Of a DNA stretch of 64,000 nucleotides, positions 1 to 23,062 are shown in pieces. Origin of the DNA: Candidatus Omnitrophota bacterium (GTDB taxonomy: Bacteria > Omnitrophota > Gorgyraeia > B26-G9). A program made the position numbers and the translations under genes. Under the pieces are notes generated by a model that was not told where the DNA came from, made no database searches, and saw only the letters and a program-made list of their open reading frames with translations. The first letter of the stretch is position 1. The number at the start of each line of letters is the position of its first letter. The stretch covers positions 93,786 through 157,785 of the forward strand of contig JAZDHZ010000007.1 of the NCBI GenBank assembly GCA_043805415.1. Direction: 5' to 3'.

Positions 1-580
1 TTTCGATTCTTAAGGCCCGGCTGGAATTATTTTTCGGCGAGTTCTGAATTAACAACTGTCCGTGAAAAAGATTTTTAAAAACTATTCCCGCCAAGCCGCT
101 CTCTGGTTCCAGGCCGAATACTTTGGCTTTGGGATCAGCGAGAAAAACCCCCTGCCAGACATTATTCATCTCCGGGAAAACCCCTTTTTCCGCTTCACTG
201 AACCATTGCTCATAAGCATCCTTAAACATTATTCCGCTAAATGACTTTGTGATTGCTAATGGTTCTTTAACATCCAAATAAACCACCCAGCCAAAACCAT
301 TGTCAATTTTACTTATCTGCCAAAGCACTCTCAGCGGTAAATCCTCCCAATCAATGGTAATATGCAGAATATCTTGTTTTTCTTCCACCTGCCATATTCC
401 GCTGCTTGTATCATGCCAAGTCCCATTAATTAAAAAAGCCGTATGCAGGCCCAGATCATTGCTGCTCTTTGTTTTCTGATAATAAACCTGGATTTGTTTA
501 TCAGCAATAACCAGCCTGGACATGGAATTAACAAATTTATGTTTATTCAGCTTGGCGATAATTTTTTTTAATATCAGCAT
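1..580 (-). CDS. Partial CDS, C-terminally truncated by the window edge; stand-alone copy of the W-rich repeat domain found in the Wzt C-terminal extension
   Basis: Manual reverse-complement translation from ATG at 578-580 (GGAGA 7 nt upstream) gives an open frame to position 1 (MLILKKIIAKLNKHKFVNSMSRLVIADKQ...IWQVEEKQDILHITIDWEDLPLRVLWQISKIDNGFGWVVYLDVKEP...SFSGIMFKDAYEQWF...). It aligns by eye with NWQVIKTEKDFFLVQGQW...VFGFMFNDQYKHYL of the 5129..9184 protein. The ORF track missed it because no stop lies in the window; the 62..244 plus-strand ORF is antisense to it. Confidence 0.5.
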   Translation of the reverse strand, partial: MLILKKIIAKLNKHKFVNSMSRLVIADKQIQVYYQKTKSSNDLGLHTAFLINGTWHDTSSGIWQVEEKQDILHITIDWEDLPLRVLWQISKIDNGFGWVVYLDVKEPLAITKSFSGIMFKDAYEQWFSEAEKGVFPEMNNVWQGVFLADPKAKVFGLEPESGLAGIVFKNLFHGQLLIQNSPKNNSSRALRIE

Positions 581-600
581 AATAATTCTCCAACTTTTTC

Positions 601-720
601 AGTCAATAGCTAATAGTCAATGGCTTATAGTTAATAGTTATGAATTACAAGTTATTAGTTTCTAGCTCTTAGCCTGCGGCCGTTTAATTCTTACCATTAG
701 CTATGAGCTATAAGCTTTAC
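601..720. repeat. Intergenic TAGC/ATAG-rich repeat element, copy 1; contains AGTCAATAGCTAATAGTCAAT and TGAATTACAAGTTATT
   Basis: Core ATAGTCAATAGCTAATAG recurs at 34921..34938 (+) and as reverse complement at 37971..37993; sub-motif tgaattacaagttatt matches tgaattataagttatg at 34841..34856. Confidence 0.6.
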
Positions 721-721
721 T

Positions 722-1729
722 CTATTCGCTATCAAAATGACAACTAACCACTAAATGACAATTCCTCCGGCAATTATTTATCTGTTCAATATGCTTATCC
801 ATCTGTTCCGACAGACAAATCCGCTCCAGATTCTGCTTATTTTTTATATTATCGATTATTCCCAGCATCTGGCATTTTGACACATTTCCCGCAGGATCAA
901 TATTCAAAACATTGGCCTGAGCCAAATTACATCTATTGCTTTTAATAAAACTCACGGCATCAAAGAAATATTTTTTAAAAATTTTTAACTGGCCAATGCT
1001 GTCCGCGATTTTATAGCCCTGAGATTTAAACTCAATCAGCTGATTGATTATTCGCTCGATTTCCGGCTTATCGTTTGGCCAAAGGCTCTGATATTCATCA
1101 GACTGAAACCAATACTGATCAGCAGCTTCACTATAAGAAAAAGGCTGGGCTATGGCCTGAAAATTAATATACGCTAAGCGCTTGTCATTTTCCACCCACC
1201 GCGTCAGCTCAATTATATCCAAAAGATTAATCCCGCTGATCACAGTATTAATCCCGATACAAATATCCGGATTACTCTCAGCAATATTTTCAATTGCCTG
1301 TAGAACATGTTCCAATGCCCCGGGTTTGCCTCTGAGAAAATCATGAGTTTTTGGATTTAAACTATCCAGCGAAAAACAAATAAACTTTAAGCCAGAGGCA
1401 GCGATATTCGCTGCGATTTGTTTACTTACATAAAACCCATTGGAAATTAGCTGAATTTGAAGCCCTAAACCAATACCGTGTTTTATTAAATCAAATATAC
1501 CAGCGCGCAGTAAAGGTTCCCCCGGTCCGGAAAAATTAACAATACACTTACCGCGGTCCACAAATTCACTGATTTGCTCTAAAACATTCTTCCATTGTTC
1601 GATGGAAAGAATATTATCCGCGGTTAAAGGACTATCCTGCCAAAATTTGCACATCTGGCATTGAAAATTGCACTCATAGGCAATGCCCAAATCGCAATAT
1701 GTTAATTTTATATTATCTATTTTTTCCAT
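722..1729 (-). CDS. Radical SAM/SPASM-domain protein, subtype A (paralog of 2819..3841)
   Basis: N-terminal CNFQCQMC (CxxxCxxC); HDFLRGKPG motif; C-terminal CX13GX4C (CNLAQANVLNIDPAGNVSKC) and CRRNCHLVVSC Cys cluster typical of SPASM/twitch auxiliary Fe-S domains. Confidence 0.8.
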   Translation of the reverse strand: MEKIDNIKLTYCDLGIAYECNFQCQMCKFWQDSPLTADNILSIEQWKNVLEQISEFVDRGKCIVNFSGPGEPLLRAGIFDLIKHGIGLGLQIQLISNGFYVSKQIAANIAASGLKFICFSLDSLNPKTHDFLRGKPGALEHVLQAIENIAESNPDICIGINTVISGINLLDIIELTRWVENDKRLAYINFQAIAQPFSYSEAADQYWFQSDEYQSLWPNDKPEIERIINQLIEFKSQGYKIADSIGQLKIFKKYFFDAVSFIKSNRCNLAQANVLNIDPAGNVSKCQMLGIIDNIKNKQNLERICLSEQMDKHIEQINNCRRNCHLVVSCHFDSE

Positions 1730-1760
1730 TTTCTATTTTCTTTATGTTCTTGTGTCTTGT

Positions 1761-1780
1761 GGCCACGTCACGCCGTGGCC
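1761..1780. other. GC-rich hairpin ggccacg-tcacgc-cgtggcc, 24-43 nt downstream of the stop of the 1804..2838 gene
   Basis: Perfect 7-bp GC stem in an AT-rich spacer; related motif CACGTCAC..CGTGG at 13194..13211. No U-tract follows on the minus strand, so it is not a canonical terminator. Confidence 0.4.
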
Positions 1781-1803
1781 CTACTATTCGCTATACGCTG
1801 CTT

Positions 1804-2838
1804 TCAATCTTCTTCAAAAAAACAATTGATTAAAAAATGACAGTTTTTCTTACAAGCTTTTATATTCTGCCTGATTATTCCGGCTTTTTCCGAGTTCCAG
1901 ATTATATTTATATCCTCCATCAGACGGATATCTCCGATCGGCTCAAAAGCAAAACAATGATAAATCAGTCCGATGGAACTGATATGTATTGCTTTATCCA
2001 TATTACAGCTGGTTTTTTTCACAAAGCTATCTGGATCGGATAAATACTGTTTCATTGCCTTTAGCTGAGCAATACCGTTATTTATTTTATAGCCTTTAGC
2101 TTTTAATTCTATTAACTGATCAAACAATTCACTGACCCGCTGATTGTTTTTCGGCCATAAAAACCCGTATTTGCCCTTCCACCAGTGTTCTTCCGGCAAA
2201 GTATTATTCGGCTGCATCGGCACAGTCAAAGACACATCTTTGATTTTGGGATTATCATTTACCCATTGCACCAGCTCAATTATCCCAGAATAATTCTGTT
2301 CATAAATCACACTGATCAGGGCTATTTCAATATCCGGCGCGAAACAATGCAGATTATCAATCGCCCGCATCAGCTGCGCGTAAACTCCCTCCACTCCCCG
2401 CAAATAATCATGGGTCTGCCTGTCCATGCTATCCAATGATAGTTTTATAGTTTTTAAACCTGATGCTGCCAAACGTTCGGCAGTATTCTGATCAATTAAA
2501 TATCCATTGGAGACTAAATTTGTGCGCAGTCCGGCTTTATCCGCTGCCGCGATCAGAGCGTAAATATCTTTATGCAGCAAAGCCTCTCCTCCGCCGAAAT
2601 TCAGCACAAAATCCTTGCTCACTATTTTTTTTAACTGATTAAGTAAACTCGCATACTGGCTAAGCGTGGGGAAGCAATCAGCCGCGGTATTTTTAATAAA
2701 AATATCCGGCTGCCATTTATAGCACATCTTACATTTAAGCATGCACTGATCAGTAATCCCTAAAGAAGCGAATTCCGCTTTTTCGCTTATTCGCGCCTGT
2801 TTGATTTGTTCCGGGCTATTATTTAACATATTCTTCAC
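1804..2838 (-). CDS. Radical SAM/SPASM-domain protein, subtype B (paralog of 4085..5125)
   Basis: CMLKCKMC CxxxCxxC; SLDSMDRQTHDYLRG motif; C-terminal CKKNCHFLINC cluster; shares KGYKINN and SCNMDKAIHISS blocks with the 4085..5125 protein. Confidence 0.8.
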   Translation of the reverse strand: MKNMLNNSPEQIKQARISEKAEFASLGITDQCMLKCKMCYKWQPDIFIKNTAADCFPTLSQYASLLNQLKKIVSKDFVLNFGGGEALLHKDIYALIAAADKAGLRTNLVSNGYLIDQNTAERLAASGLKTIKLSLDSMDRQTHDYLRGVEGVYAQLMRAIDNLHCFAPDIEIALISVIYEQNYSGIIELVQWVNDNPKIKDVSLTVPMQPNNTLPEEHWWKGKYGFLWPKNNQRVSELFDQLIELKAKGYKINNGIAQLKAMKQYLSDPDSFVKKTSCNMDKAIHISSIGLIYHCFAFEPIGDIRLMEDINIIWNSEKAGIIRQNIKACKKNCHFLINCFFEED

Positions 2839-3841
2839 TTTCGTTAAAGTTGCAGTTAACCAATGACTGACAGTTTTTTCGGCACAATTTTATCTCAGCG
2901 CGCGCCTGTTCTGCGCTCTGACTAAACCAGAGCTCACTGATCCTATTGCTTTTTATATTTCCGATTGCCTGTTTATCAAAGCATATATGCACGTCTCCGG
3001 TAGGCGTAATATTCAGTGCCCGCAGATCAAGATGACAATGATTTTGCTTTATAAAATCATTGGGCTGGGAAAAATATTTACTGAATACGGCAAACTGATC
3101 TTCCGGGTTTTCCAGCACAAAATCCGCGCGCAAATCAGAGCTGTTTTTAAGTTTTGCCAATTGGCACATTGTCTGCCGCACACAATCCTGATCATTGGGC
3201 CATAAAAAAGCGTATTCTGGTTTTTCATACCATTTATCATCAAACTCAGTATTGAACGGCTGGGTAATCGCCTGATAGCCTATGCCGTGAATGCGTTTAT
3301 CTTTATTGGCCCAAAGCGCGACTTCCACCGCGTCTTTGATATTATAACCGGATATTGTGGTTGTAATATCAATAATTATCCGCGGCGCGTATTTAGCCAG
3401 GCTTGCTATAGCCGCCGCAACTTTGTCAAAACTGCCGGGCTTACCGCGGAGAAAATCATGCGTCTTGGGATTAGCTGAATCCAGAGATATGGTTATCTGG
3501 TTTAATCCGGCTTTGGCTAAATCCTCAGCCATCAGGTCATCGAGCAGATAAGCATTTGTTGCCAGCAAAGTCTCAAAACCCTGTTCACGCGCCCAGCTGA
3601 TCAGTTCAATGGTTTCTTTTCTCAGCAAAGGCTCGCCTCCGGCAAAATTAATCCGCGGTTTTTTGGCCAGGCACATCTGCCCCAGATCAGTTATAAACGC
3701 TTTCCACTGGGTAATTGAAGGCTCCCGCGGATCTCTATATTCCACGGAATTATGCCATTTAAAGCACATCTTACAGCGCATAAAACAGCTCTCAAGTAAA
3801 GCAATACAGCAATATGTCGGTAATTTTTTGTTTTCATTCAT
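2819..3841 (-). CDS. Radical SAM/SPASM-domain protein, subtype A (paralog of 722..1729)
   Basis: CFMRCKMC CxxxCxxC; SLDSANPKTHDFLRGKPG; C-terminal CRKNCQSLVNC; its 3' end overlaps the start of the 1804..2838 gene by 20 nt. Confidence 0.8.
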   Translation of the reverse strand: MNENKKLPTYCCIALLESCFMRCKMCFKWHNSVEYRDPREPSITQWKAFITDLGQMCLAKKPRINFAGGEPLLRKETIELISWAREQGFETLLATNAYLLDDLMAEDLAKAGLNQITISLDSANPKTHDFLRGKPGSFDKVAAAIASLAKYAPRIIIDITTTISGYNIKDAVEVALWANKDKRIHGIGYQAITQPFNTEFDDKWYEKPEYAFLWPNDQDCVRQTMCQLAKLKNSSDLRADFVLENPEDQFAVFSKYFSQPNDFIKQNHCHLDLRALNITPTGDVHICFDKQAIGNIKSNRISELWFSQSAEQARAEIKLCRKNCQSLVNCNFNESEEYVK

Positions 3842-4084
3842 GGAACTTTGTATCCTTGCAACTAGCTTATTCCTCGGTCTAGAATCAATTATTTCTGCTC
3901 ATTCTCGCCTTACATCCTGTAAGGCTCCGAGGATAAATCTCTGATTTTGCCAGTCCTAACAAAATCAGGCTTTAAACCCGCAAAATAATTATTCTAGCCC
4001 TTTTTACTTTATCCTTTTTACTTTTTACTTCCATCTGTGTTCATCGATATTTTTTATTAGTGTTTATCACAAAAGCTTCTGCTT
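3842..4084 (-). promoter_or_regulatory. 243-bp structured spacer between two radical-SAM genes inside the operon
   Basis: Nested inverted repeats: cctcgg...[gccttaca tcc tgtaaggc]...ccgagg at ~3871..3925, and tgattttg-N10-caaaatca at ~3944..3969; no ORF of 60 aa or more. Confidence 0.35.
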
Positions 4085-5125
4085 TTACTTTTCAAATTTA
4101 CAGTTAAGCAGGAAATGACAATTTTCCCGGCAATTATTAATTTCTTTTCGCACTAAATCCGCTTTTACGCTCTGCCACATTTCCCGCACTGATTTTTCCC
4201 GCACATCTCCCAAGCATTGATGGCGGTAACACATAAACATATCTCCTACAGAGCTGATATGAATCGCGTGATCAATATTACAGCTGCTCTGCTTCACATA
4301 GGTATCAGGATCAAGCAAATAGGTTTTAAACGCCTGGATATGCTCAATGGGATTACTAATCTTATAGCCTTTTGTTTTCAGCTGAATAAGCTGATCTAAA
4401 ACCGCTTCCGCCTGTTTATAATCCTTAGGCCATAGTTCATTAAACGCCGGGTCTTTCCACCACTGGGTTTGAAGTTCCGTATTATTTGGCTGCATCAGCA
4501 CCATCAGATAAATCATATTGATTTTATTATTTTCCTGAACCCAGTTAACCAGATCAACCATTCCGCCCAGCGTGGGCTGCATAATAATCGAGCAAATACT
4601 GATCTGGATATTAGGCGCGTACGCGTGCACCAGATCAATCGCGTTCATAACCTTATCATAAACCCCGTCAACTCCGCGCAAATAATCATGGGTTTTTCTA
4701 TTAAGACTGTCCAAAGAAATATTGATATAATCAAGCCCGCTGTCGCGCATCTTCTCAACCATTGGTTTATCCACAATGAAGGCATTGGTGGCAATATTGG
4801 TTTTAAACCCCAGTTCATGACAGAACTTAACCAGATCAAACAGCCATGGCACTGTAGTGATTTCTCCTCCCCCGAAATTAATAATAAAATCATTGGGCGC
4901 GATTTTACGCAAAGAAAGAGCGCTCTGTTTCCAGTCGTCAAGCCCCAGCTGTCTGCGATCATCTTTAATGTAAATATCCTGTTTCCACTTTTGACACATT
5001 CTGCAGCCCAGCATGCAATCATCGCAAATACTAAAGCAGCAAAATGTCAGTTTCGGGATCTGGCTGATATTTTCCTTTCTATTAGTAATATTATTCATTA
5101 TTAATCTCCGTAATTGTTTTAACAT
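4085..5125 (-). CDS. Radical SAM/SPASM-domain protein, subtype B (paralog of 1804..2838)
   Basis: CMLGCRMC CxxxCxxC; SLDSLNRKTHDYLRG; C-terminal CRENCHFLLNC; 3-nt gap to the upstream Wzt-like gene, so co-operonic. Confidence 0.8.
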   Translation of the reverse strand: MLKQLRRLIMNNITNRKENISQIPKLTFCCFSICDDCMLGCRMCQKWKQDIYIKDDRRQLGLDDWKQSALSLRKIAPNDFIINFGGGEITTVPWLFDLVKFCHELGFKTNIATNAFIVDKPMVEKMRDSGLDYINISLDSLNRKTHDYLRGVDGVYDKVMNAIDLVHAYAPNIQISICSIIMQPTLGGMVDLVNWVQENNKINMIYLMVLMQPNNTELQTQWWKDPAFNELWPKDYKQAEAVLDQLIQLKTKGYKISNPIEHIQAFKTYLLDPDTYVKQSSCNIDHAIHISSVGDMFMCYRHQCLGDVREKSVREMWQSVKADLVRKEINNCRENCHFLLNCKFEK

Positions 5126-5128: not shown

Positions 5129-8100
5129 TCATTCCTTATCCTTATTAACTTTAATCTTTATCTTAAATTCAATTTTCTTATCCTGAACAGTAATATTTTT
5201 AGTTTTGCTTAATATTACCCGGCTATTATGATTCTCATCCGTATCTTTAATAATATTATCCCAATCAACACTGCACCAAGCTTCCCAGCTAATTTCCGGC
5301 AATTTACTGTTTTCCGCGAAAACTTTCATCTTATTCTTAGACTCAGCGACCTGACGCCAAACATCCGGATTGCTCCGCGGCGCGAACATCCCGAATTTCC
5401 GGGGATGTTCAGATACCTGCCAATTAACAAATTCTTTGTTCAGCATTATTCCCACGGCTATATCTTCAATCAGCGCAGGATCCAACTCGAAATAAATCCG
5501 CCATAATATTTCATTATCATCACCGTATTCAATTTCCTGAGTATGAGCGATTAAACAGTCTGCTTTGAATTTCAGCCGGATCATATCAGCGGTTTTATCA
5601 AGCTGTAATAATAACTGGGATGAATCAAACCAGTAATCTTTTGTTTTCATGGCTGTATACAGGCATAAGCCGTTAGTCAGCTCTTTGCGGTCATAGAACA
5701 ATCTTATTCTAGCCTGATCCAAGACAAGTTTAATTCTGCCTTTGTTCAGTTCCTTTAGCGGCAAAGTTTTTTTCTGAACACAATTATGGTTAAAATCATT
5801 AATTTTTTTCTCTTCCGAAGAAAGCAGAATATTTGCTTTAAATATTTCATGCTTACCGGGTTCAAGAACAAATGCCTGTTCCGCGAGCAAACGTTTAACT
5901 CCCAAAACAATAATCTCTTTGTTCGCTGGCTTAAATATCTGCAGCAGCCATTGCCCCATATCAGCTAAAGGAGCAAAAGCAATTTCCGCTGACTGTTCCG
6001 CGGCTAAATCAGTTTGTTTTAAAACAATATACCGGCTGCGGTTGTCGATAAGGTCTATGGCTTGAAATCCCTGGTCATGATCATTTAAAGCGATTACTCC
6101 CTTACCTAGTTCGCTCAGCCAATGCCGAAAAACTTTGGGTAAAAACATATTTATTGTCAGCGCGTATATTGCTGTTTGTTCTAAAACTTCCAGTTCCACG
6201 ATCCAGGAAATATATCCCGCTTTTTCCTGTAAATACCAGTTCTGGACAAGGAGGGGATTATTATATGTAATTTTAATAAAAAGCGTATGCGGATCCTGTT
6301 TTTTAATCTGCCAGTGCCCCTGGAAAGAATCAAATTCATCATAAGCGCTGACGATTACTGCCAAACCGCAGTCAGCGCTGATCAGCTTATTTTGATAATA
6401 AAGTTCTGTTTTTTGCTGCTTGGCTGTTAATCGGCAAGTCTCTGAACAAACTATAGAAAAATCTTGTTCGCAGTATTCATCTATTCCCTTTTGCCAGGAT
6501 TCCGGATCAACGATATCAAGTTCGGCGCTAAAAACCGGCTTCTGATCGTTTAATTCTCCGGGGTTTAATTTAGCCTGAAACTGCAGGTTCCTTGAACGAT
6601 TTGAATACTGCAGCAAGGGAGTATAAGCAAACTCGCTTAAACTATTATGCTTAAACAGCACGGCGCAGCCGGCATCATCAGTACAGGCTCCCAGCAAACA
6701 GCTGTTTAATTCTGTAAGGTCAATAAGCTTGATTTCCTGCGCGTCATTGCTGAACCTATTTTTTTCATACGCATTAATCCACTGCCGGAATCGCGGATTT
6801 AGTATGATTCCCACTTTATATTCAAAAGCATCATTTAATTCAAGCGGGTCTAAATATACATTCCAAATAAGGCTATGCTGTTTTAATTCAATCCGCCAAG
6901 ACTCTTTTACCTTGGGAAATTTTCTCTGAATGCTTACCAGCAGATAATTATCTTTTTTTTCAATTTTTTTGGCCACACCATGCGATTCATACCAGCGCTT
7001 ATTTAAAAATATTCCGCTGCTAAACCCGGCTAAAGCCGCCGTAATCTCGGTCTGTCCGAAAAATAAACGAATCCTGTCTTGGCCGCAATCAATACGCAGC
7101 GAGTCATTGCCCAGGAGATTAGCGGAATTAAATTTATCTCTTTGCTTGGCAATAAACCGCTGTTTTTCCTCAGACTGTTCAATAACCATCATTCGGCAAT
7201 TAATTGACGCGCTGTCCTGACTGCTGATCCGAATCCGCCGGGTACTTAGTTCCTGGCGGCAATTATACAGATCAATCCGGGCATTATCATCCGCCTCGGC
7301 AATAAAATGCTTATCCTGCCGCGCCTTACTGCTTAAGCCGACAAACCCGCATTTATTATGTTTTAAAATAACCTTTTCGTCAAACTCAATCGCGGGTAGA
7401 AAATCATTTTCCTGAGTTAATTCAAAATACGAATCATAATCATCAGTCAGATCAGCGTCGATCCAGATTAAGCTCTGGCTCTGTTCTAGGCTTTGCCCAT
7501 TTTTCAGCGACATTTTAAGCAATAATTCCTTGCCGGTTAAAATTAAATTTAATCTTACCTGAATCTGTTGCGTAAAAAATTCAGAATCAACCGCGAATTC
7601 CGCCTCACTGATCTTTGTGATTTTCCATTTTCCCTCAAATATATTATAAACATGATTTTGCTGTTTAAATCCGCAAACCAGTCCAAAGCCTTTGCTTATT
7701 TGTTCTGTTCCGTTAAAAAGCTGAAAACTTTTTTCTTCCAGCTTAAGCGTTAAACTATCTTTGCTGATGCGGATTTTTTCCTGCTGCTGCCTGAGCTTTT
7801 GTTCCAGCTGTTTTTTATCCAGCAGCTGAATCAGGGTTTTACATACCGCGCTTTGTTTCTGGTCTAAGAAAACATGCGTTTGGATAATATTTGCCGCGAA
7901 ACCTTCCTGGCGCTGGATCAAACCAAAACCGCGCTGCTGGTCGATATTAAAATTCGCCCAGACCGCGGGGATATCCGAATCAGCCGCGGACAATACCAGT
8001 AAAGCCTCCTTCTGGTCAGTACGATACAAATCCTGGCATTGCTCAGTGGTAAAATTTTCCGCGGCCCGCATAGGTTTTATTTTATCCGCGTCCAGATAAT

Positions 8101-9184
8101 GTTTATATTGATCATTAAACATAAAGCCGAAAACCGCTCTTTCCGCTTTTTGATCAGCCGTCAGGTTAATACTGCCGATACATTCAAATTCTCGCTCATT
8201 CTCCAGTTTAACCTGGATTTGCGCGCTTATCCGATTAGCCCATTGCCCCTGGACAAGAAAAAAATCTTTTTCGGTTTTAATTACCTGCCAATTCGCCTCC
8301 CAGGACATCAGCCATTTATCCCAGAGTTTTAAGCTTAAATACCCGCCAAAATCAGCGGTTATCGGTTTTCCGTCCCAAAGCAAGACAAGCCTTCCGCTAT
8401 TAAAAATAATGCTCAGTTTTTCCTGGTCAATGCAGGCAATAGCCTGTTTCTGCCCCACTGCCTGGACATAGCGGATAATTGATTTATGGATTGAGTCATC
8501 TTTTACTATCTGTCCGGTTTTCAGCAAAATACCCCGGGTGGCAATCCGGCTTAAAGAATCCAGATCATGGGAAACAATTACCACGGTCGCACCTTGTTTG
8601 TTCATTTCCATTATTCGCTTTAAACACTTAGCCTGAAACTCGGCATCGCCCACAGCCAGACTGTCATCAATCAGGAAAATATCCGGATTTACATGCACAG
8701 CCACGGAAAAGCCTAAACGCACGAGCATGCCCTGGGAATAAGTTTTTACCTGAGAGTCAATGAACTCATTTAGCCCGGAAAATTCAACGATTTCAGCAAA
8801 CAGGGCGTGAGTCTGTTTTTTACTCAAACCATAAAGCGCGGCATCAAGATAGATATTTTCTCTTCCGGTTAATTCCGGATGAAATCCCGCGCCTAAATCA
8901 AGCAGTCCCGCTACTTTGCCTTTAACATATATTTGCCCGCTGGAGGGCACCGTGATTTGGCTGATAATCCTCAGAATTGTTGTTTTGCCTGAAGCGTTTT
9001 CTCCGATAATCCCCAGAATCTCGCCTTTTTGCACTGAGAAACTAATATCTTTTAATGCCAAGACCTCGCGCTTGTTCCGGGCTTTTTTAAAAAAAGACAG
9101 AAAATTGCTGACTAAGAATTGTTTCCCTGAATTAAAACAATACTTTTTGCTGATGTTTTTCAGTTCAATAACTTTTTCTGACAT
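5129..9184 (-). CDS. Wzt/TagH/KpsT-type polysaccharide ABC-exporter ATPase (N-terminal ~250 aa) fused to a ~1100-aa C-terminal extension of repeated W-rich domains (1351 aa total)
   Basis: Walker A GENASGKTT; family block KGKVAGLLDLGAGFHPELTGRENIYL; YSQGM signature (Wzt-type YSxGM, not LSGGQ); Walker B FLIDDSLAVGD. The extension carries recurring W-x-(I/V) blocks (WQVIKTEKDFF, WKITKISEAEF, WRIELKQHSLIW, WQIKKQDPHTLF). Confidence 0.8.
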   Translation of the reverse strand: MSEKVIELKNISKKYCFNSGKQFLVSNFLSFFKKARNKREVLALKDISFSVQKGEILGIIGENASGKTTILRIISQITVPSSGQIYVKGKVAGLLDLGAGFHPELTGRENIYLDAALYGLSKKQTHALFAEIVEFSGLNEFIDSQVKTYSQGMLVRLGFSVAVHVNPDIFLIDDSLAVGDAEFQAKCLKRIMEMNKQGATVVIVSHDLDSLSRIATRGILLKTGQIVKDDSIHKSIIRYVQAVGQKQAIACIDQEKLSIIFNSGRLVLLWDGKPITADFGGYLSLKLWDKWLMSWEANWQVIKTEKDFFLVQGQWANRISAQIQVKLENEREFECIGSINLTADQKAERAVFGFMFNDQYKHYLDADKIKPMRAAENFTTEQCQDLYRTDQKEALLVLSAADSDIPAVWANFNIDQQRGFGLIQRQEGFAANIIQTHVFLDQKQSAVCKTLIQLLDKKQLEQKLRQQQEKIRISKDSLTLKLEEKSFQLFNGTEQISKGFGLVCGFKQQNHVYNIFEGKWKITKISEAEFAVDSEFFTQQIQVRLNLILTGKELLLKMSLKNGQSLEQSQSLIWIDADLTDDYDSYFELTQENDFLPAIEFDEKVILKHNKCGFVGLSSKARQDKHFIAEADDNARIDLYNCRQELSTRRIRISSQDSASINCRMMVIEQSEEKQRFIAKQRDKFNSANLLGNDSLRIDCGQDRIRLFFGQTEITAALAGFSSGIFLNKRWYESHGVAKKIEKKDNYLLVSIQRKFPKVKESWRIELKQHSLIWNVYLDPLELNDAFEYKVGIILNPRFRQWINAYEKNRFSNDAQEIKLIDLTELNSCLLGACTDDAGCAVLFKHNSLSEFAYTPLLQYSNRSRNLQFQAKLNPGELNDQKPVFSAELDIVDPESWQKGIDEYCEQDFSIVCSETCRLTAKQQKTELYYQNKLISADCGLAVIVSAYDEFDSFQGHWQIKKQDPHTLFIKITYNNPLLVQNWYLQEKAGYISWIVELEVLEQTAIYALTINMFLPKVFRHWLSELGKGVIALNDHDQGFQAIDLIDNRSRYIVLKQTDLAAEQSAEIAFAPLADMGQWLLQIFKPANKEIIVLGVKRLLAEQAFVLEPGKHEIFKANILLSSEEKKINDFNHNCVQKKTLPLKELNKGRIKLVLDQARIRLFYDRKELTNGLCLYTAMKTKDYWFDSSQLLLQLDKTADMIRLKFKADCLIAHTQEIEYGDDNEILWRIYFELDPALIEDIAVGIMLNKEFVNWQVSEHPRKFGMFAPRSNPDVWRQVAESKNKMKVFAENSKLPEISWEAWCSVDWDNIIKDTDENHNSRVILSKTKNITVQDKKIEFKIKIKVNKDKE

Positions 9185-9208: not shown

Positions 9209-9988
9209 TTAAGTAAAATCAGCGAAAAATTTCTTATTATTCCTAAATAAAACAATGCCCAATATCCCAAAGCCAAGGCTTATGCCCAGCATCCAGCCAA
9301 GGGCAAAAAAACCGGGAACTTTAGCATAAAGCAAAATATCCCGGTAAGCGTTTATATACAAGCTCAAGGGATTAAGGTAAAAAAATCCTCGGATATTTTC
9401 CGGAACCAAAGACAAAGGATAAAAAATCGGAGTAGCATAAAACCATACCAGCATAATCAGCTCAATAATATATTTCACATCCCGGTAAAAAGTATGCAAA
9501 GCCGCCACAGACAGGCAAAGCCCAACAATAAATACAGTCTGAAGAATGATTATCAGCGGCAGATAAACCCACGGCCAGCTGGGGAAAATTCTAAAATAAG
9601 CTAAAAACGCGAATAGGAGAAACTGGGAAATAAGAAAATTAAACAGATTCGCGCAAACAACGGAAAGCGGAATCACTTCATAAGGAAAATAAGCTTTTTT
9701 AATCAGACTGGCATTATCGACTATTGAAGTCGCGGCCGCGGTTAAAGAAAAATTCAGAAAAAACCAGGGCAAAAGCGCGCTCAGAAGAAATACCGGATAA
9801 TTGGCAATCTGGATCTTCATAATAAAAGTAAACACCAGGCTGAAAACCAGCATTAAAAGCAAAGGATTGAGCAAAGACCATAGCCAGCCTAAGACCGCTG
9901 ACTTATACTTTATTTTTATTTCTTTTTTAGTCAGGCTGATAATCAAATTGCGGTAAGCATAAATGCTTTTTATATAAGCGTAACTCAT
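9209..9988 (-). CDS. ABC-2 type (Wzm/TagG-like) polysaccharide exporter permease
   Basis: 259 aa, about 6 hydrophobic helices; sits directly upstream of the Wzt-like ATPase; start overlaps the stop of the 9985..11277 gene. Confidence 0.75.
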   Translation of the reverse strand: MSYAYIKSIYAYRNLIISLTKKEIKIKYKSAVLGWLWSLLNPLLLMLVFSLVFTFIMKIQIANYPVFLLSALLPWFFLNFSLTAAATSIVDNASLIKKAYFPYEVIPLSVVCANLFNFLISQFLLFAFLAYFRIFPSWPWVYLPLIIILQTVFIVGLCLSVAALHTFYRDVKYIIELIMLVWFYATPIFYPLSLVPENIRGFFYLNPLSLYINAYRDILLYAKVPGFFALGWMLGISLGFGILGIVLFRNNKKFFADFT

Positions 9989-11277
9989 AGTTTATTTATC
10001 TCCTGAGCAATAACCTTTCCATCAATAATCACATCTTCCATTGACATGTATTTCCATTGCCCAAACCGTCCCACGGGAAAGATATTATTCGCTTTTAAAA
10101 AATCATTCAGCGCCTGCATGCTCAGACGATAATTATGATCATATACAACATAGGCATATTTAATATTATGCGCGTGGGAAACTAAAATAAGATCATCCTT
10201 GGTTAAAATCCCAGCGCTGATCAAATCATTTTGGATTATTTTATTTATATCTTTTTTGGGCAAAGGTTTATTTTCGGAATATGATACTTCCGCGTATAAA
10301 GAACTTTTATTCGCGGGAGCAACATTCTGCGAAAAATTCATCGGAAACCCCAGCCGAAAAAAAACAAACTTATCTTCCGGATAATAAATCCAGTGTTTAT
10401 CACTTATCCGCGGCCGGTCAATGCCCAGATTAAGATTATATATTGAGATATATCTAAGCTGGGAAAACGCGGTTTTTACTTTTTCCGGCATCTTATTAAC
10501 AATTAGTTTCTTTAATTCAATCATCGGCAAAGAACAAATAAGCTGCGTAAACTTTTCGGTTCGGCCATTATTAAATTTTACTGTTTTCTGCTCGAGATCT
10601 ATTGCCTGCGTCTCATGTTCAGTATATATGTTTTTGACCTGGTTAGCAAAAGCTTTTGCCAGCTGATCAATTCCCCCGGTTTGCGGATACCAGAATTCAC
10701 TATTATAACCCAAGGCTTTGGTTTTTAAAGTAAATGCTCCATCCAGGACTGTTTTTATTTTTACCTGAGGAACATAATTCACTGTCCAATCAGCTATAAG
10801 CTCTTGCGGCGGCACAGTCCAAAATTTATAGTTATAGGGATACATGAAATATTTTGTTATCCCCTTGCCAAACCTATCTAACATCCACTCGTAAAGATTT
10901 TGCTGGTCATTATCTTTTGTTTTCAATGAGGCTTTGAGCATTCCGAGAATGCATTTTTTTACTATTTGCAAAGGCAAGCCAAAAGTATTTGCCTGAAAAG
11001 GATATTTCGTATAGATATCATGAGAGTAAATCCAGGCATTACGCTTATGGCTAGATAATAAATCCGGCAAAAGTTTATTAATTAATTGTTTAACATAATT
11101 GGTTTTAAAATGCAGAAGATGCCCATCATAATCAAAAATAAAACCATTCACCAAATCAGTGCGGGCAAGACCGCCGACCTGGTCTTCTTTTTCAAATATC
11201 TTAACTTCATCCTGAATATGAAAAGCAGTGCTTAATCCAGCAAGCCCAGCACCTAAAATTATAATTTTCTTACTCAT
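9985..11277 (-). CDS. FAD-dependent oxidoreductase, UDP-galactopyranose mutase (Glf)-like
   Basis: N-terminal dinucleotide fold IIILGAGLAGLSTAFHI; VGGLARTD...YDGHLLHF and PFQANTF blocks resemble Glf IGGNAYTE...YGAHIFHT...PFNMNTF; ATGA overlap with the WecA-like gene. Confidence 0.55.
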   Translation of the reverse strand: MSKKIIILGAGLAGLSTAFHIQDEVKIFEKEDQVGGLARTDLVNGFIFDYDGHLLHFKTNYVKQLINKLLPDLLSSHKRNAWIYSHDIYTKYPFQANTFGLPLQIVKKCILGMLKASLKTKDNDQQNLYEWMLDRFGKGITKYFMYPYNYKFWTVPPQELIADWTVNYVPQVKIKTVLDGAFTLKTKALGYNSEFWYPQTGGIDQLAKAFANQVKNIYTEHETQAIDLEQKTVKFNNGRTEKFTQLICSLPMIELKKLIVNKMPEKVKTAFSQLRYISIYNLNLGIDRPRISDKHWIYYPEDKFVFFRLGFPMNFSQNVAPANKSSLYAEVSYSENKPLPKKDINKIIQNDLISAGILTKDDLILVSHAHNIKYAYVVYDHNYRLSMQALNDFLKANNIFPVGRFGQWKYMSMEDVIIDGKVIAQEINKL

Positions 11278-12290
11278 TCATTTATTTCCAATCGGCTTAA
11301 TTTCATTCCGACTAAACACATAATGCTAATAACCAATAAAAACATAAATAAACCCAAAGTATTTGAACCGAGAAAAATCACTAATGCGCAGCAATTAGTG
11401 ATAATCGCCAGGATGATCATTATCCGCAATATCGATCCCTTGGAAATTCCGATTTTAAGCATTCTGAATACAAAATGATCATTACTTTTCATAAAAATAG
11501 ATTTTTTTTGCCTAAACCGCACAAAAATAACAAAAAGCATATCAAAAAGCGGTAAAGCCAGGATTACTAGAGGGATAACCAAACCGATTTCATGACCTGT
11601 GGGCGCGAAACTTAATGATATTGCCATTACTGCCAGGGAAAACCCCAAAAACTGACTGCCCGCATCACCCATAAATATCCGCGCCGGAGGCAGATTATAT
11701 TTTAAAAAAGCAATTAAAACCGCACACTGAAGTCCGGCGATAAGGATAACAAAATGATTGTTTGTTAAAACCGCAAAAATCAAAAAAACAATCGTACTGA
11801 TTAAAGCCACGCCCCCAGCCAGCCCATCAAGTATATCCAGCAGATTAAACGCGTTAATCAATAAAATAATCCAGAAAAAACTCAAAACTATATTAAAAAA
11901 AGTGTTCAGATAAACAATCTCTGTTCGCATCACAAAACCAATTAGCAGCATTGCCCCGAGGAATTGCCCTGCCAGTTTTTCCCTGGGATTCATTTCTTTA
12001 ATATCATCATAAAAGCCAAGCAATGTGATAATCGCGGCTGCCAGCATAAACATACAGAATCCAAATAAGTCAATCGAGAAACAAGGAAAGCGGACAAACG
12101 CGAAACCAAGAATTAAAAACACACTGAACATGCCGATTCCGCCAAGATAAGGAACCTGTCTTGGATCTATTTTTTGCGGAGCAGGACCAGTAACAAAACC
12201 CTTAGCTTTCGCGAATTTTTCCAACAAGGGCAATAAAAAATAGCATAAGCCAAAAGCACTGATAAATAATAAACCAATAGTACTGGACAT
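11274..12290 (-). CDS. Glycosyltransferase family 4 polyprenyl-phosphate sugar-1-phosphate transferase (WecA/MraY family)
   Basis: Polytopic membrane protein carrying the family signature NAFNLLDILDGLAGG and the DD-containing FYDDIKE motif; first gene of the operon. Confidence 0.75.
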   Translation of the reverse strand: MSSTIGLLFISAFGLCYFLLPLLEKFAKAKGFVTGPAPQKIDPRQVPYLGGIGMFSVFLILGFAFVRFPCFSIDLFGFCMFMLAAAIITLLGFYDDIKEMNPREKLAGQFLGAMLLIGFVMRTEIVYLNTFFNIVLSFFWIILLINAFNLLDILDGLAGGVALISTIVFLIFAVLTNNHFVILIAGLQCAVLIAFLKYNLPPARIFMGDAGSQFLGFSLAVMAISLSFAPTGHEIGLVIPLVILALPLFDMLFVIFVRFRQKKSIFMKSNDHFVFRMLKIGISKGSILRIMIILAIITNCCALVIFLGSNTLGLFMFLLVISIMCLVGMKLSRLEINE

Positions 12291-12625
12291 AATTTAAACC
12301 TTATATATTTTAATTCAGAACAGAGGTGACTCCCCACTATAATTTACAGACAATACAATTAATACAGGGCTAGATTAGCTTGCTTAGATAAAAACAGCCT
12401 GTGCTTTGCTGAAAATTGAAGCTAATTATTCGCAACACCTTGAAATTATAAATAGTTAGACTATTTTCGTGTAAAAATAATATAGCAAAAAACAGCTAAG
12501 TTGTCAAATGAATAGAATCTGTAAATCAGAAAGGAAAACAGGAGAAATAAAGGAATTTTAAAAGTCAGGAATTGCTATGGAAATATGGTTTATTCCGCGG
12601 ACTCAACTTAAGACAAACATATAAC

Positions 12626-13009
12626 TTATGACGACAGCTCTAATCCTTCGAGAAAATCATCAACAATTTTTTTATTCTGGTCATTTTTCCACCAGGAAAA
12701 GCTTATCCCTGATCTATATTTATCAGCATCCTGGTAAGTCCATTCCACTTTGCCGAAAACTCTTATTGGGCTAATAGTTTCATTTAGTAAAATATCTATA
12801 CTTAGACGTGTGCCAACAGCCATTGTTTCTTTTGAATAAATTCCTGCGCCGAAAAGAGTAAAATCCCGCAAAAAGCATTCTGTTCCGTTCCAATAGCGAA
12901 ACCATGCCTGCGGATCTAAGGGCCTAACCTGTACAGCTGATTTATCAGCTAATTTTCTTATATTCGCTCTCTGTTCCTTTGCGATAATATCCATATTTTT
13001 TTGCTCCAA
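12626..13009 (-). CDS. Small stand-alone PilZ-domain protein (putative c-di-GMP receptor)
   Basis: RANIRK (RxxxR) and DFTLFG (DxSxxG-like) motifs; paralog of the 37540..37899 protein (RPLDPQ.WFR.WN...VFGKVEW...G.SFSWWK shared). Confidence 0.6.
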   Translation of the reverse strand: MEQKNMDIIAKEQRANIRKLADKSAVQVRPLDPQAWFRYWNGTECFLRDFTLFGAGIYSKETMAVGTRLSIDILLNETISPIRVFGKVEWTYQDADKYRSGISFSWWKNDQNKKIVDDFLEGLELSS

Positions 13010-13193
13010 TTCAGCTTATTTCAGATTAATAGTTTCTTTAATTTATTTGCTCTTATTTAATCTATTTTTCAAACCCGCAGAGAATAAATCAAAACTATTT
13101 CCCATAGTTTTATAAAGCCTTTTTAAATATTTCATAAGTTTACACTAATGTTTAATTTTTTGCAAATTATTTTTTAAAAATGACAACCATTTT

Positions 13194-13211
13194 CACGTCA
13201 CCGCGTCGTGG
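13194..13211. other. GC-rich hairpin-like motif cacgtcaccgcgtcgtgg, ~50-70 nt downstream of the pilin-like gene stop
   Basis: Shares CACGTCAC..CGTGG with the 1761..1780 hairpin; the stem is shorter here. Confidence 0.3.
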
Positions 13212-13262
13212 AACGGTTGCAGCCAAATGGATGAATTAAGTATTGTGTCCCTTTATTTACCT

Positions 13263-13937
13263 TTATTTAGGCAGGGAAATTGTAGCAGTATAGTCATTTT
13301 TGTAAAATTCAGGGTTTGTTGTTTGTGTGCCCATGCCCATTTCTATGGTAATCAATACTTCTATCTTGCTCGGCGCTCCGTCAGTTCGTGAATCCCAGTC
13401 AATGAATGGAGCTCCGGAGCTGTCAAAAAAAGTAAATTGTAAATCAGTGATATTTTCGGAAAATGGATCGCTTGATCCAGTATTAAAATTAAAATCAAAA
13501 CCAACCGGATCTAAGGTTTTTCTACCGTCAGTAACATAAAATCTTTCTAATACATCATCATTTAATTCCGCGGTTCCCTGCCCATCCAGCCAGAATCCAA
13601 CTTCACATAAATCGGATTTATCAGCTTCATTTGGATTTAAAGCAGCAATAAAATAAAGTTCATCGCCAATGCTATCTGTTCTCCATCCGCTGGGAGTGGT
13701 TTTATCAAATCCTAAACAATAAAAATTATTACCTTCTCTAATCACCGCGCTGGAAATCTCTCGAGTCATTCGATCTAAAACAACCCGCGCGATAGTCGTA
13801 GATTTTAAAATATTATCCGCCTTTTTCCAAGCACGCAAAGAAACATTAAAAACCGAATACAAAATCGCTATCAGTAAAGCAAGAATTCCGATAGAAACTA
13901 AAAGCTCAATCAGGGTAAATCCTTTTTTTAAAACCAT
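13263..13937 (-). CDS. Type IV pilin / pseudopilin-like protein (prepilin N-terminal cleavage/methylation domain)
   Basis: N-terminus KKGFTLIELLVSIGILALLIAILYSVF: class III signal with G-1, F+1, E+5 and a hydrophobic helix; start codon overlaps the stop of the upstream 767-aa gene. Confidence 0.7.
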   Translation of the reverse strand: MVLKKGFTLIELLVSIGILALLIAILYSVFNVSLRAWKKADNILKSTTIARVVLDRMTREISSAVIREGNNFYCLGFDKTTPSGWRTDSIGDELYFIAALNPNEADKSDLCEVGFWLDGQGTAELNDDVLERFYVTDGRKTLDPVGFDFNFNTGSSDPFSENITDLQFTFFDSSGAPFIDWDSRTDGAPSKIEVLITIEMGMGTQTTNPEFYKNDYTATISLPK

Positions 13938-16240: not shown

Positions 16241-16278
16241 CCGTCCTTGGCTAAACTACACTATTCATAGTTAATTTC

Positions 16279-18231: not shown

Positions 18232-18285
18232 ATAATATCGGGTATCAGTTGATTTAGGGTTTCAGGTTAAATGACTTAAGGTTTA

Positions 18286-20109: not shown

Positions 20110-20149
20110 GCGCGATCACTTCCTTTGGTTTTGTCTGATTATTTTTACT

Positions 20150-21439
20150 TTATTTTTTGCCTGTTTCTTTGTCCTGTTCAGGTTCTTTATCCTGATATTC
20201 TTTATTCCAAAGCTTACGCAAAACATAATAAGCTTTCCTTGGGTTTCTTTTATTTAAACCATTGGCATCAAGCTCAGGATCTAAGCCCACAATCCCGAAC
20301 CATTCTTCATTCATATTCTTGTCCGCTTTAGCGTCAAAATCATATGAACCCATGCCCCAAGCAGCGACATTATCATGAACCCACCAGCTGTTTCGATCGC
20401 TTTCCGAGCTTTTCCACCATTCATCATTCCATTCAAATACAACTCCGCCCAGACAATTACCCACTCCCTCGCCGCCATCCATGTTGTTTTGAATGTCAAG
20501 CCATTGACTTTTCAAAAATTTTGCCTGGTTTTTCTGATCTTCTTGTTTTTTCACCATATTATAGGCGTCACAGCCAAACTCGGTTAAAATAACCGGCCGG
20601 TCAAACTTACGTTTTACTTCTTTAAAAAAGTTGCCAAATACCTTACCGCGATAGACAATACATCCAAGCAAATCAATATCCGGACAATTTTCCGCTGCTA
20701 TTTTCAGACCAACAGTCTCACCATTGCCTAAAGAGACCAGATGGATAGGATCAATTTCCTTTATTTTTTTAGCCAGTTCATTAACAAAGGAATAATATAT
20801 TTTAGCCCGCGCGTCTCTTTTTTTGCCAAAACTATCCATTGCGTCGATTTCATCGCTTGACCAGGGATTTATTCTGCCGTCAAAACTATAATTATTTTCA
20901 TTGCCTAAATTCCAGATTAGTATTCCAGGGGTATCTTTAAAATATTCTACTGTATTTAAGACTTTCTCCGTGATTTCTTTTCTAAACTCCGGATCAGCAT
21001 AATTAGCAGGAGGATAATCCCAAAAACCAAGCGTATAGCCTAAAATAGTCCGAATCCCGTATATCTTATATAAGTCCTCAATCATTGTCCGACAAAATTC
21101 CAGCTCATCTCCGCTATGATAGAGTCTGATCGTATTCACACCCATTTCTTTCATTAATTTTCCATCAACTAACCAGGGTCGCTTCGGGTCGCAGACAAAA
21201 TTATATAAAATTCCCTGCTGACCTATGGGCACTGGGGAATAACAAACCCCTTTTACAATAAACGGTTTTTTATCAACAATCAGCTGATAGTTATATTTTT
21301 GTTCATCTTCTCTGCTTTGTTTTTTAATTTTTATTTTCTTAATATAAACCTTACCCTTAGGCTCTTGTTTTAACAGACTGCATCCTGTGATTAATAAAAA
21401 AATTAATAATAACGTAATTTTACGAATTTCCATATTCAT
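20150..21439 (-). CDS. Lipoprotein glycoside hydrolase, clan GH-A TIM-barrel (GH5/GH72-like catalytic motifs)
   Basis: Lipobox LLITGC; WNLGNENNY (acid/base NE motif) and ILTEFGCDAYN (nucleophile TE/SE-x-GC motif as in GH72); paralog of the 23063..24955 C-terminal domain. Confidence 0.55.
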   Translation of the reverse strand: MNMEIRKITLLLIFLLITGCSLLKQEPKGKVYIKKIKIKKQSREDEQKYNYQLIVDKKPFIVKGVCYSPVPIGQQGILYNFVCDPKRPWLVDGKLMKEMGVNTIRLYHSGDELEFCRTMIEDLYKIYGIRTILGYTLGFWDYPPANYADPEFRKEITEKVLNTVEYFKDTPGILIWNLGNENNYSFDGRINPWSSDEIDAMDSFGKKRDARAKIYYSFVNELAKKIKEIDPIHLVSLGNGETVGLKIAAENCPDIDLLGCIVYRGKVFGNFFKEVKRKFDRPVILTEFGCDAYNMVKKQEDQKNQAKFLKSQWLDIQNNMDGGEGVGNCLGGVVFEWNDEWWKSSESDRNSWWVHDNVAAWGMGSYDFDAKADKNMNEEWFGIVGLDPELDANGLNKRNPRKAYYVLRKLWNKEYQDKEPEQDKETGKK

Positions 21440-21550
21440 ATTAAAAAAACCTTTCCCCTGATTTTAAAATTATTACCCAATACATCTCTTCACTCTTGCT
21501 TTGAAAAATCACCCATCTAAGCTAAATTACAATCTCATATAGCAAATAAG

Positions 21551-21585
21551 GGTAGGAACTAGAATCAGGCCCCTACCCTTACTTG
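21551..21585 (-). terminator. Candidate stem-loop (taagggtagg-N15-cctaccctta) just downstream of the 21608 stop
   Basis: 10-bp perfect stem; the minus-strand downstream sequence is only moderately U-rich. Confidence 0.3.
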
Positions 21586-21607
21586 TTGATATTTATCAAT
21601 CTAATAA

Positions 21608-23022: not shown

Positions 23023-23062
23023 TTTTATCTTTTTCCTTAATTTGCCTGATTGCTAAACAATC

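Follow-up and report, generated by a model that had tools for sequence, protein, structure and literature searches.

The window considered here is a stretch of 64,000 nucleotides from a Candidatus Omnitrophota genome (assembly GCA_043805415.1, contig JAZDHZ010000007.1), and the system in question is a tandem array of four genes near its beginning, named D, C, B and A in order of transcription, which encode radical S-adenosylmethionine (rSAM) enzymes of about 340 amino acids. The rSAMs are the most numerous gene class in a conserved, co-directional locus of glycan type. Judged from the sequences, their genes are most probably part of a glycan assembly and ABC-export locus and their substrate is most probably a sugar; it seems rather likely that the enzymes carry out radical tailoring of a lipid-linked glycan in the cytoplasm before the ABC transporter exports it. 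A sugar substrate is favoured because glycan genes lie on both sides of the array, a domain designated REP is shared among members of the locus, the enzymes match BlsE, related genes occur elsewhere in loci with glycosyltransferases of families GT1 and GT2, and no precursor peptide was found. Pathways that depend on an ABC transporter complete their glycan in the cytoplasm and export it afterwards, and the use of rSAMs with this route makes sense because the polymer is finished in the sole compartment suited to these oxygen-sensitive, reductant-dependent enzymes. Neither the REP domain nor the occurrence of rSAM arrays in Wzm/Wzt loci turned up in a full-text literature search, in agreement with the original prediction that such chemistry is not described for ABC-exported glycans. 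To our knowledge, no exported bacterial polysaccharide has been reported for which radical SAM reactions are the main means of tailoring.

The radical SAM array and its locus

The original prediction described four rSAM/SPASM genes with a CxxxCxxC motif and C-terminal cysteines; the reading frames, the rSAM domain and the cysteines stood, while the full SPASM domain did not and the hairpin spacing had to be widened to X11-13. The Pfam model Radical_SAM (PF04055) is passed by all four proteins (69, 63.7, 77.9 and 66.5 bits against a cut-off of 29.5). The CxxxCxxC motif, invariant across 120 homologues, lies at C20/24/27 in A, C32/36/39 in B, C19/23/26 in C and C37/41/44 in D, and a GGE-type motif is present in all four (G77-G78-E79, invariant; SGPGE in paralogue A). 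At the C-terminus five invariant cysteines are arranged as CX11-13GX4C, a gap of about 32 residues and CX3CX5C, after which the protein ends within 4-10 residues; in paralogue A they are C267-X13-G-X4-C286, then C320-X3-C324-X5-C330. Pfam SPASM scores above its cut-off in C (31.6) and D (25.0) only, remains sub-threshold in B (17.0) and is missing from A. A full SPASM domain (PF13186/TIGR04085) has seven cysteines, CX9-15GX4C - gap - CX2CX5CX3C - gap - C, and binds two auxiliary clusters. The five-cysteine motif found here is best described as a truncated SPASM, twitch-like and not full, whose cysteine count and spacing are compatible with a single auxiliary cluster; the twitch model NF033640 gives 47-71 bits against a cut-off of 170.

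None of the four proteins reaches the cut-off of an NCBIfam equivalog, the top scores (NirJ2, AhbD, GeoRSP, viperin, WgkB, MoaA, BlsE) being about 65-87 bits against cut-offs of 180-650. Membership in the NirJ/AhbD heme, MoaA and PqqE families was considered and rejected, all scores being far under the cut-offs. A defence function was weighed as well, in which the proteins would be prokaryotic viperin-like antiviral enzymes, or part of another defence module, standing by chance beside a glycan operon. The PADLOC pVip model matches all four (E 1e-18 to 3e-27) and the NCBIfam model viperin_w_prok is the top match of C (86.5 bits); the PADLOC matches, however, span the rSAM core only (about positions 4-165 of a model of 257), NF038283 yields 62.7-86.5 bits where 180 are required, the C-terminal half consists of a cysteine-rich twitch/SPASM part and not the viperin extension, and collinear conservation in glycan loci of dozens of genomes is unlike that of defence islands. 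This proposal is effectively refuted by the domain architecture and deserves hardly any credence.

The four genes had been divided into two subtypes in the order B-A-B-A, as if a two-gene unit had been duplicated. In the window B and D are 43.9 % identical, A and C 38.7 % and the other pairs 33-35.5 %. When 61 small rSAMs from 14 loci were placed in a neighbour-joining tree (100 bootstraps), D and B formed a group with two minor clades in 99 of 100 replicates, and B/D is a real subgroup. The supposed partner subtype of A and C is not a clade: the A+C split appears in 1 of 100 replicates, and over the 14 loci the mean identity of A with C (34.8 %) is matched by those of C with D (34.8 %) and C with B (35.7 %). 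The D, C, B and A orthogroups are each recovered in 100 of 100 replicates, and the collinear orthologues of the four genes in one relative (L001; L numbers denote related loci) are 64, 54, 56 and 50 % identical to them. Since each of these values exceeds that of any paralogue pair, recent duplication of a two-gene unit is not supported, and on the orthologue identities and bootstraps together the idea was dropped. The four genes are old, distinct paralogues in a fixed order; in some relatives one more rSAM stands ahead of D or separates D from C.

The Wzt, Wzm, WecA-like and Glf-like genes that had been named upstream of the array were confirmed by Pfam, NCBIfam and PDB matches (coordinates in Table 1). 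The components that mark ABC-dependent export, i.e. an ABC-2 permease with a nucleotide-binding domain (NBD) of Wzt/TagH type and a polyprenyl-phosphate initiator, are all present. The WecA-like (GT4) protein matches MraY structures and scores 92 bits with the WecA model TIGR02380 (cut-off 326). The flavoenzyme is similar to UDP-galactopyranose mutase (UGM): it aligns over its full length (residues 2-411) with the Trypanosoma cruzi UGM and keeps the motifs GGH, YPFQxN, PYNxKxW and GRFGxWxY, reaching 38 bits with the bacterial UGM model TIGR00031 (cut-off 304), and UGM activity is putative. In Wzt the P-loop reads GENASGKT, the TagH and galactan Wzt scores of the NBD are both under their equivalog cut-offs, and residues 256-1351 have no Pfam match, so the Wzt_C domain (PF14524) is absent. 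Chain-building cytoplasmic glycosyltransferases were not found in the 64-kb window.

Over the first 26 kb every gene lies on the minus strand, and transcription would run from a promoter match through the WecA-like, UGM-like, Wzm and Wzt genes to rSAM D, C, B and A. The GT4 gene starts 189 nt downstream of this promoter match, the best in 13.5 kb (11 of 12 positions); in a promoter and terminator scan whose site counts were about those of shuffled sequence, it was the sole site to stand out. Overlaps of 4 nt join the GT4 to the UGM-like gene and the UGM-like to the Wzm gene, and C and B overlap by 20 nt. The distance from the Wzt stop to D is 3 nt if D begins at the ATG at 5125 and 30 nt with the annotated start, which in the NCBI call for the identical protein is Met10, i.e. 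5098. The tight linkage originally proposed thus stands with regard to the common direction, the place of the rSAMs directly downstream and the 4-nt overlaps, whereas the 3-nt gap holds with the ATG at 5125 alone and the linkage is interrupted by the D-C gap (243 nt), the B-A gap (75 nt) and a further 141 nt from A to the next gene. Co-transcription of the locus is likely on the grounds of spacing. Conservation does not extend to the D-C spacer: in close relatives the corresponding junction measures 68 nt (L016), 3 nt (L006) and 5 nt (L001). An Rfam scan of the whole window gave no match.

A scan of one genome per species yielded 70 loci with relatives of the small rSAMs, mostly from Omnitrophota, with a few labelled Patescibacteria, Margulisiibacteriota, Deltaproteobacteria, Caldisericota, Nanoarchaeota, Woesearchaeota and Methanosarcinales. 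The canonical cassette lies on one strand and comprises GT4, UGM-like, Wzm, Wzt with two to six REP copies, 4-12 tandem small rSAMs and REP-fused rSAMs; in more than 10 Omnitrophota genomes it contains D, C, B and A orthologues in collinear order. Among the non-redundant loci of at least 10 kb, 35 of 56 have at least four rSAMs of the family and 16 at least eight, and by this comparison of gene neighbourhoods the association of rSAMs with Wzm/Wzt recurs. A Wzt-type NBD or a REP gene is found in 43 of the 56, a lower bound given the 10-kb flanks. Genes for GDSL/SGNH acyl-hydrolases, B12-dependent rSAMs (B12-rSAMs), PMT_2 glycosyltransferases of fold GT-C, GT2 and GT1 recur in the cassettes. In one polysaccharide locus of conventional make-up (L027) an rSAM of D/B type lies among Wzm, a short Wzt, GT2, two UGM-like, a WecA-like, four GT1 and a GH5-like gene.

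Arrays of 9-11 rSAMs of the same family are also present in metagenome-assembled genomes (MAGs) labelled DPANN, Methanosarcinales or candidate phyla radiation (CPR); on the archaeal-labelled contigs (L060, L062, L066, L067) they adjoin GT2, a CE4 polysaccharide deacetylase and a Wzt-like ATPase. One MAG labelled Patescibacteria has four separate loci (L050, L055, L056, L065). The arrays in all these MAGs are to be explained either by horizontal transfer between ultra-small or episymbiotic lineages or by mis-binned Omnitrophota contigs. Polytopic membrane proteins with an embedded spermine/spermidine-synthase-like domain adjoin arrays in L030, L062 and L060 (740, 678 and 614 aa), in bacterial and archaeal-labelled loci alike.

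REP modules and the candidate substrate

REP is an all-beta domain with a core of about 160 amino acids, repeated with a period of about 220. The Wzt extension consists of five copies (about 1100 aa), each found by an iterated hidden Markov model at E 1e-39 to 1e-46; a long rSAM has three, and a B12-rSAM of about 1400 aa carries REP as well. The domain has no match in Pfam and is rare: of 1.84 billion cluster representatives, 573 match it at E <= 1e-3. Fifty REP proteins were sampled, of which 27 contained ABC_tran (the ABC NBD) and one rSAM/SPASM. One REP unit was modelled with pLDDT 86.7 and pTM 0.83, and its predicted fold resembles the carbohydrate-binding sandwich of galactose-mutarotase type. 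The copies have no invariant residue but many conserved aromatics, for which reason REP is presumably a binding rather than a catalytic module; on Wzt it would be a new carbohydrate-binding-like domain. As many as 10 REP occur in a single protein of 2454 aa (gene 1 of L047). Fusions with a PMT_2 GT-C enzyme were seen in five of the 50 sampled proteins, with examples among P0158, P0170, P0217 and other REP proteins, and REP would therefore be used on both sides of the membrane.

The original prediction spoke of a four-enzyme set, which was an undercount: the window holds at least five rSAMs, relatives at least seven, and related loci up to 12 of the family. The fifth, of which the first 193 aa are visible, begins with REP, and its orthologues (L001, L006, L016 and others) are proteins of about 1180-1210 aa with three REP followed by rSAM/SPASM. 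About 35 nt before the start of this gene are conserved between the window (575-615, minus strand), L016 (12140-12180) and L006 (6166-6206), in a spacer of about 141-145 nt that is otherwise not conserved among them; they contain TTGACT-16-TATTAT and a GGAG ribosome-binding site and may represent an internal promoter. The far end of the locus was read from relatives, with D orthologues that share 78 % (L006/L080) and about 60-63 % (L011/L077) identity with D. Glycan genes are thus found both upstream and downstream and the rSAM array is bracketed by them, the glycosyltransferases of the cassette being few and distal.

Gene content, gene order, conservation, sharing of domains and similarity of fold are what was observed; the substrate, the location of the reaction and every reaction type are what we infer. 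The WecA-like enzyme would start a polyprenyl-diphosphate-linked glycan, probably containing a furanose, which the few glycosyltransferases of the far end would extend on the cytoplasmic face. There the rSAMs would tailor it, and Wzm/Wzt would export the tailored product. D, C, B and A would each convert SAM to a 5'-deoxyadenosyl radical that abstracts hydrogen from a specific sugar carbon, with the probable single auxiliary cluster taking the second electron; epimerisation, oxidation to a keto-sugar, deoxygenation or decarboxylation are possible outcomes at each site. A different step or position is likely for each of the four, because they are old, collinear, one-to-one orthogroups. The larger rSAMs and the B12-rSAMs, the latter probable C-methylases, may be brought to the polymer by REP, and the five REP on the Wzt ATPase may allow the exporter to bind it.

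Radical chemistry on a lipid-linked glycan, as first suggested, agrees with the glycan genes on both sides, the BlsE match and REP; the small enzymes, which have no REP, may act on the polymer or on a precursor. Several points weigh against polymer tailoring. The four small rSAMs are linked to a polymer by operon context only and could act instead on a nucleotide-sugar or a lipid carrier. Cut-offs of NCBIfam equivalogs are not reached and a characterised close homologue is lacking. The fold to which REP is compared also occurs in settings unrelated to carbohydrates, such as the periplasmic domain of YidC, a PBCV-1 capsid protein and an NDH subunit. Co-transcription is deduced from spacing, and the 243-nt gap with a weak hairpin falls between D and C. 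The glycosyltransferase end is known from relatives and lies outside the window, and some of the related MAG labels (Patescibacteria, Methanosarcinales, Planctomycetia) are possibly binning errors.

The precursor alternative can be stated fully as follows: acting in sequence, the small rSAMs would make an unusual activated sugar, as a nucleotide-sugar or as the first lipid-linked sugar, which glycosyltransferases then incorporate. The best matches (BlsE, MoaA, viperin, DesII) do act on small nucleoside or nucleotide substrates, the REP carried by the larger rSAMs and Wzt is missing from the small ones, and the operon also encodes a nucleotide-sugar enzyme, the UGM-like one. On the other hand, 4-12 paralogues per locus go far beyond the needs of any known nucleotide-sugar pathway, the REP-fused rSAMs of these loci suggest a macromolecular substrate, and no nucleotidyltransferase, kinase or aminotransferase of the kinds usual in sugar-nucleotide pathways was found in the cassettes examined. 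We consider this alternative unlikely, if the most serious one.

Most characterised SPASM/twitch enzymes are peptide maturases, and the rSAMs could likewise mature a ribosomally synthesised and post-translationally modified peptide (RiPP) or a protein, encoded elsewhere or unrecognised, with the ABC-2 transporter exporting the product or giving immunity. Sub-threshold NCBIfam matches to WgkB, StsB, ScmE/F and the ACGX-system rSAM (the last aligned with C from end to end) speak for this. A search for precursor peptides in 140 intergenic gaps of 76 loci found one recurrent small ORF, basic and of about 47 aa, which belongs to another subtype of cassette. It reads MAETLWQKF..GGLFYALYRGFKYIAWRN.. 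and lies just upstream of an rSAM/SPASM gene of about 410 aa in ten related loci (L017, L018, L022, L023, L027, L029, L035, L038 at about 8759-8900, L040 and L043); it might encode a small partner protein or a peptide substrate, or else be a wrongly called N-terminus, and it is absent from the window. Within or beside the array itself, in the window and in canonical relatives, no small conserved ORF was seen, in line with the original prediction, which noted no precursor-peptide ORF, and the combination of a top match to a peptide-modifying family with a precursor nearby was not encountered. Further, the CxxxCxxC motif starts at residues 19-37, which leaves no room for an N-terminal RiPP recognition element (RRE), all peptide-maturase models remain far under their cut-offs, no RRE or PqqD-like family is among the Pfam matches, glycan genes flank the array on both sides, and the fold of the shared domain is of carbohydrate type, not PqqD-like. 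A peptide or protein substrate is accordingly rated as improbable.

The same low rank is given to the view that the enzymes modify a lipid, either the polyprenyl carrier or one of the membrane, in the manner of Tes/GDGT-MAS, GrsA/B and the hopanoid rSAMs (cross-linking, cyclisation, saturation or methylation), and that Wzm/Wzt flips the resulting glycolipid. SGNH enzymes are common as glycan O-acyl-transferases and esterases too, and the recurrence of GDSL/SGNH lipase-like genes in the cassettes, which would suit this view, may be read as well in terms of glycans. Many rSAMs stand beside just one or two cytoplasmic glycosyltransferases, and other rSAM lipid enzymes have been reported for Omnitrophota (10.1101/2023.10.20.563219). 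Nevertheless the likeness to Tes/GDGT-MAS is limited to the generic rSAM core and ranks below that to BlsE, SkfB, anSME and MoaA, the flavoenzyme is a full-length UGM match with UGM motifs and not CrtI or HpnE, the REP fold is of carbohydrate type, and carbamoyltransferase, CE4 deacetylase and GT-C genes indicate sugars.

Tailoring of the lipid-linked glycan therefore remains the preferred reading, and a wider form of it may be offered as a tentative and rather speculative idea. There would be a hitherto unrecognised anoxic route to complex surface polysaccharides in which a simple lipid-linked glycan, built by one or two glycosyltransferases, is diversified after polymerisation by 5-15 rSAMs and B12-rSAMs guided by REP, a dedicated module for recognising carbohydrates that is common to the tailoring enzymes, the exporter ATPase and the periplasmic GT-C; epimerisation, deoxygenation, decarboxylation, C-methylation and perhaps C-C cross-links would make it the glycan counterpart of RiPP/RRE logic. 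It would be concentrated in ultra-small, probably host-associated lineages (Omnitrophota and a few CPR- or DPANN-labelled loci). The REP domain and the rSAM arrays appear to be new, ABC-dependent glycan loci and sugar-acting rSAMs are of known kinds, and there is a realistic chance that the locus represents a new mode of polysaccharide diversification. If radical SAM chemistry is indeed what tailors the exported polysaccharide, loci of this type predict surface glycans with modifications beyond the reach of annotation based on glycosyltransferases. The family amounts to hundreds of uncharacterised rSAM enzymes in distinct orthogroups, and in the Omnitrophota, which are abundant, uncultured, very small and partly predatory or host-dependent, surface chemistry probably matters for attachment.

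Features of the locus and neighbouring observations

Table 1. Features of the locus in order of transcription, with the genes of its far end as read from related loci
Feature	Coordinates in window	Strand	Remarks
Sigma-70-like promoter match, candidate operon promoter	12479..12507	-	TTGACA-17-TATATT with TG; consensus match alone
WecA/MraY-family polyprenyl-phosphate sugar-1-phosphate transferase, presumed initiator	11274..12290	-	PF00953 (Glycos_transf_4) 121 bits
FAD enzyme, homologue of eukaryote-type UDP-galactopyranose mutase	9985..11277	-	PDB 4dsg, E 2.6e-43
Wzm-type ABC-2 permease	9209..9988	-	PF01061 61 bits; galactan/KpsM permease models below cut-off
Wzt, whole gene, 1351 aa	5129..9184	-	ABC NBD and REP extension
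Wzt/TagH-type NBD, aa 1-255	8420..9184	-	PF00005 67 bits; TagH 183, galactan Wzt 153 bits
Wzt C-terminal extension, five tandem REP and stop codon, presumed glycan-binding	5129..8410	-	units from aa 259, 480, 698, 919, 1153
rSAM D, 346 aa, B/D subgroup	4085..5125	-	intact ORF
D-C spacer, 243 nt	3842..4084	.	one weak terminator-like hairpin only
rSAM C, 340 aa, own orthogroup	2819..3841	-	intact ORF; best SPASM score of the four
rSAM B, 344 aa, B/D subgroup	1804..2838	-	intact ORF, GTG start
rSAM A, 335 aa, own orthogroup, most divergent	722..1729	-	intact ORF; no Pfam SPASM match
Fifth, large rSAM, N-terminus of 193 aa visible, starts with REP	1..580	-	REP E 4.5e-52; cut by window start
Far end 1: rSAM with three REP, about 1200 aa			relatives; after rSAM A, same strand
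Far end 2: GDSL/SGNH genes			relatives; some loci
Far end 3: B12-rSAM, 1400 aa, two REP			relatives
Far end 4: B12-rSAM, 545 aa			relatives
Far end 5: GT1-family glycosyltransferase			relatives (L080, L077)
Far end 6: GT2			relatives (L080, L077)
Far end 7: NodU/CmcH-type carbamoyltransferase			relatives
Far end 8: 261-aa protein without Pfam match			relatives
Far end 9: PMT_2 GT-C enzyme			relatives

On the other side of the locus, the block 12626-26525 (minus strand) encodes a small PilZ protein, a pseudopilin with an N-methylation motif, a 767-aa protein without Pfam match, a 650-aa PilZ-N protein, a TPR/PKD protein and an MFS_2 sugar transporter. The ORFs 20150-21439 and 23063-24955 look glycoside-hydrolase-like by eye, and 21608-22297 and 22396-23022 encode paralogous secreted proteins of about 210-229 aa. 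The part with PilZ and pseudopilin is syntenic upstream of GT4 in L002 and L007-L012, which hints at a functional link, possibly cyclic di-GMP control or glycan secretion.

Farther away, an AbiEii-type nucleotidyltransferase toxin (PF08843, E 3e-28) is encoded at 35160-36059 (minus strand), and upstream of it an ORF of 159 aa without Pfam match (36377-36856, minus strand) may be its antitoxin partner. The remaining part, 38025-63998 (minus strand), is occupied by a single ORF of 8657 aa, with its ATG 2 nt short of the end of the window; giant proteins have been reported for Omnitrophota (10.64898/2026.06.07.730766).

Comparison with known systems

Sugar chemistry of rSAM enzymes is known from small-molecule antibiotics. 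BlsE (PDB 7vob) is the top PDB match of the small rSAMs in sequence-profile searches, and when a model structure of an rSAM was compared it was the closest, clear of all others; SkfB (22.5), anSME (22.3), SuiB, ChlB, MoaA (21.2) and viperin (20.7) came next, and GDGT-MAS (19.5), DesII (19.5) and BtrN (15.3) lower. It shares with the enzymes of the array the length of about 340 aa, the N-terminal CxxxCxxC, the GGE(P) motif, a C-terminal cysteine motif and a sugar ring carbon as the site of action. BlsE decarboxylates cytosylglucuronic acid at C5 of the glucuronide in the blasticidin S pathway, and its C-terminal cysteine motif was proposed to bind a second cluster (PMC3715490). The identity to the small rSAMs is nevertheless 18 %, the equivalog TIGR04466 gives 36-67 bits against a cut-off of 400, so that the four proteins fall outside it, and the C-terminus is CxCxxC in BlsE as against CX3CX5C with an upstream CX11-13GX4C here. 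BlsE is also a single enzyme of a nucleoside-antibiotic cluster acting on a small molecule, in contrast to 4-12 paralogues in a polysaccharide export locus.

BtrN, DesII, AprD4 and SpeY likewise abstract hydrogen from a sugar carbon, with dehydrogenation, deamination or dehydration as the result, and BtrN and SpeY have one auxiliary cluster in a truncated SPASM (twitch). The CX18C hairpin of paralogue A presumably has the spacing of C169...C188 in BtrN. Unlike the genes of the array, these enzymes tailor small-molecule antibiotics and have no linkage to Wzm/Wzt.

With regard to export, Escherichia coli O9a, Klebsiella O2a, the mycobacterial WecA-Glf-Wzm/Wzt system and TagGH resemble the locus in the WecA-type initiator, the UGM-like enzyme, Wzm and Wzt, and in ABC-dependent pathways the C-terminal extension of Wzt is expected to recognise the finished glycan. 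Here, however, this extension is not the known Wzt_C jelly-roll but is composed of five mutarotase-like REP. Known O-polysaccharides have methyl-, phospho- or Kdo-transferase caps where the present locus has rSAM tailoring genes, and the classical glycosyltransferases are here few and placed at the far end.

An analogy can finally be drawn with RiPP pathways (the proteusin enzymes PoyB/C/D and maturases with RRE), in which a simple polymer, once assembled, is extensively edited by several rSAMs and B12-rSAMs, some of these share a recognition domain and the product leaves by ABC export. The differences are that in the present locus the substrate would be a glycan, that the shared domain is a beta-sandwich of carbohydrate type instead of a PqqD-like RRE, and that the locus has no precursor gene.

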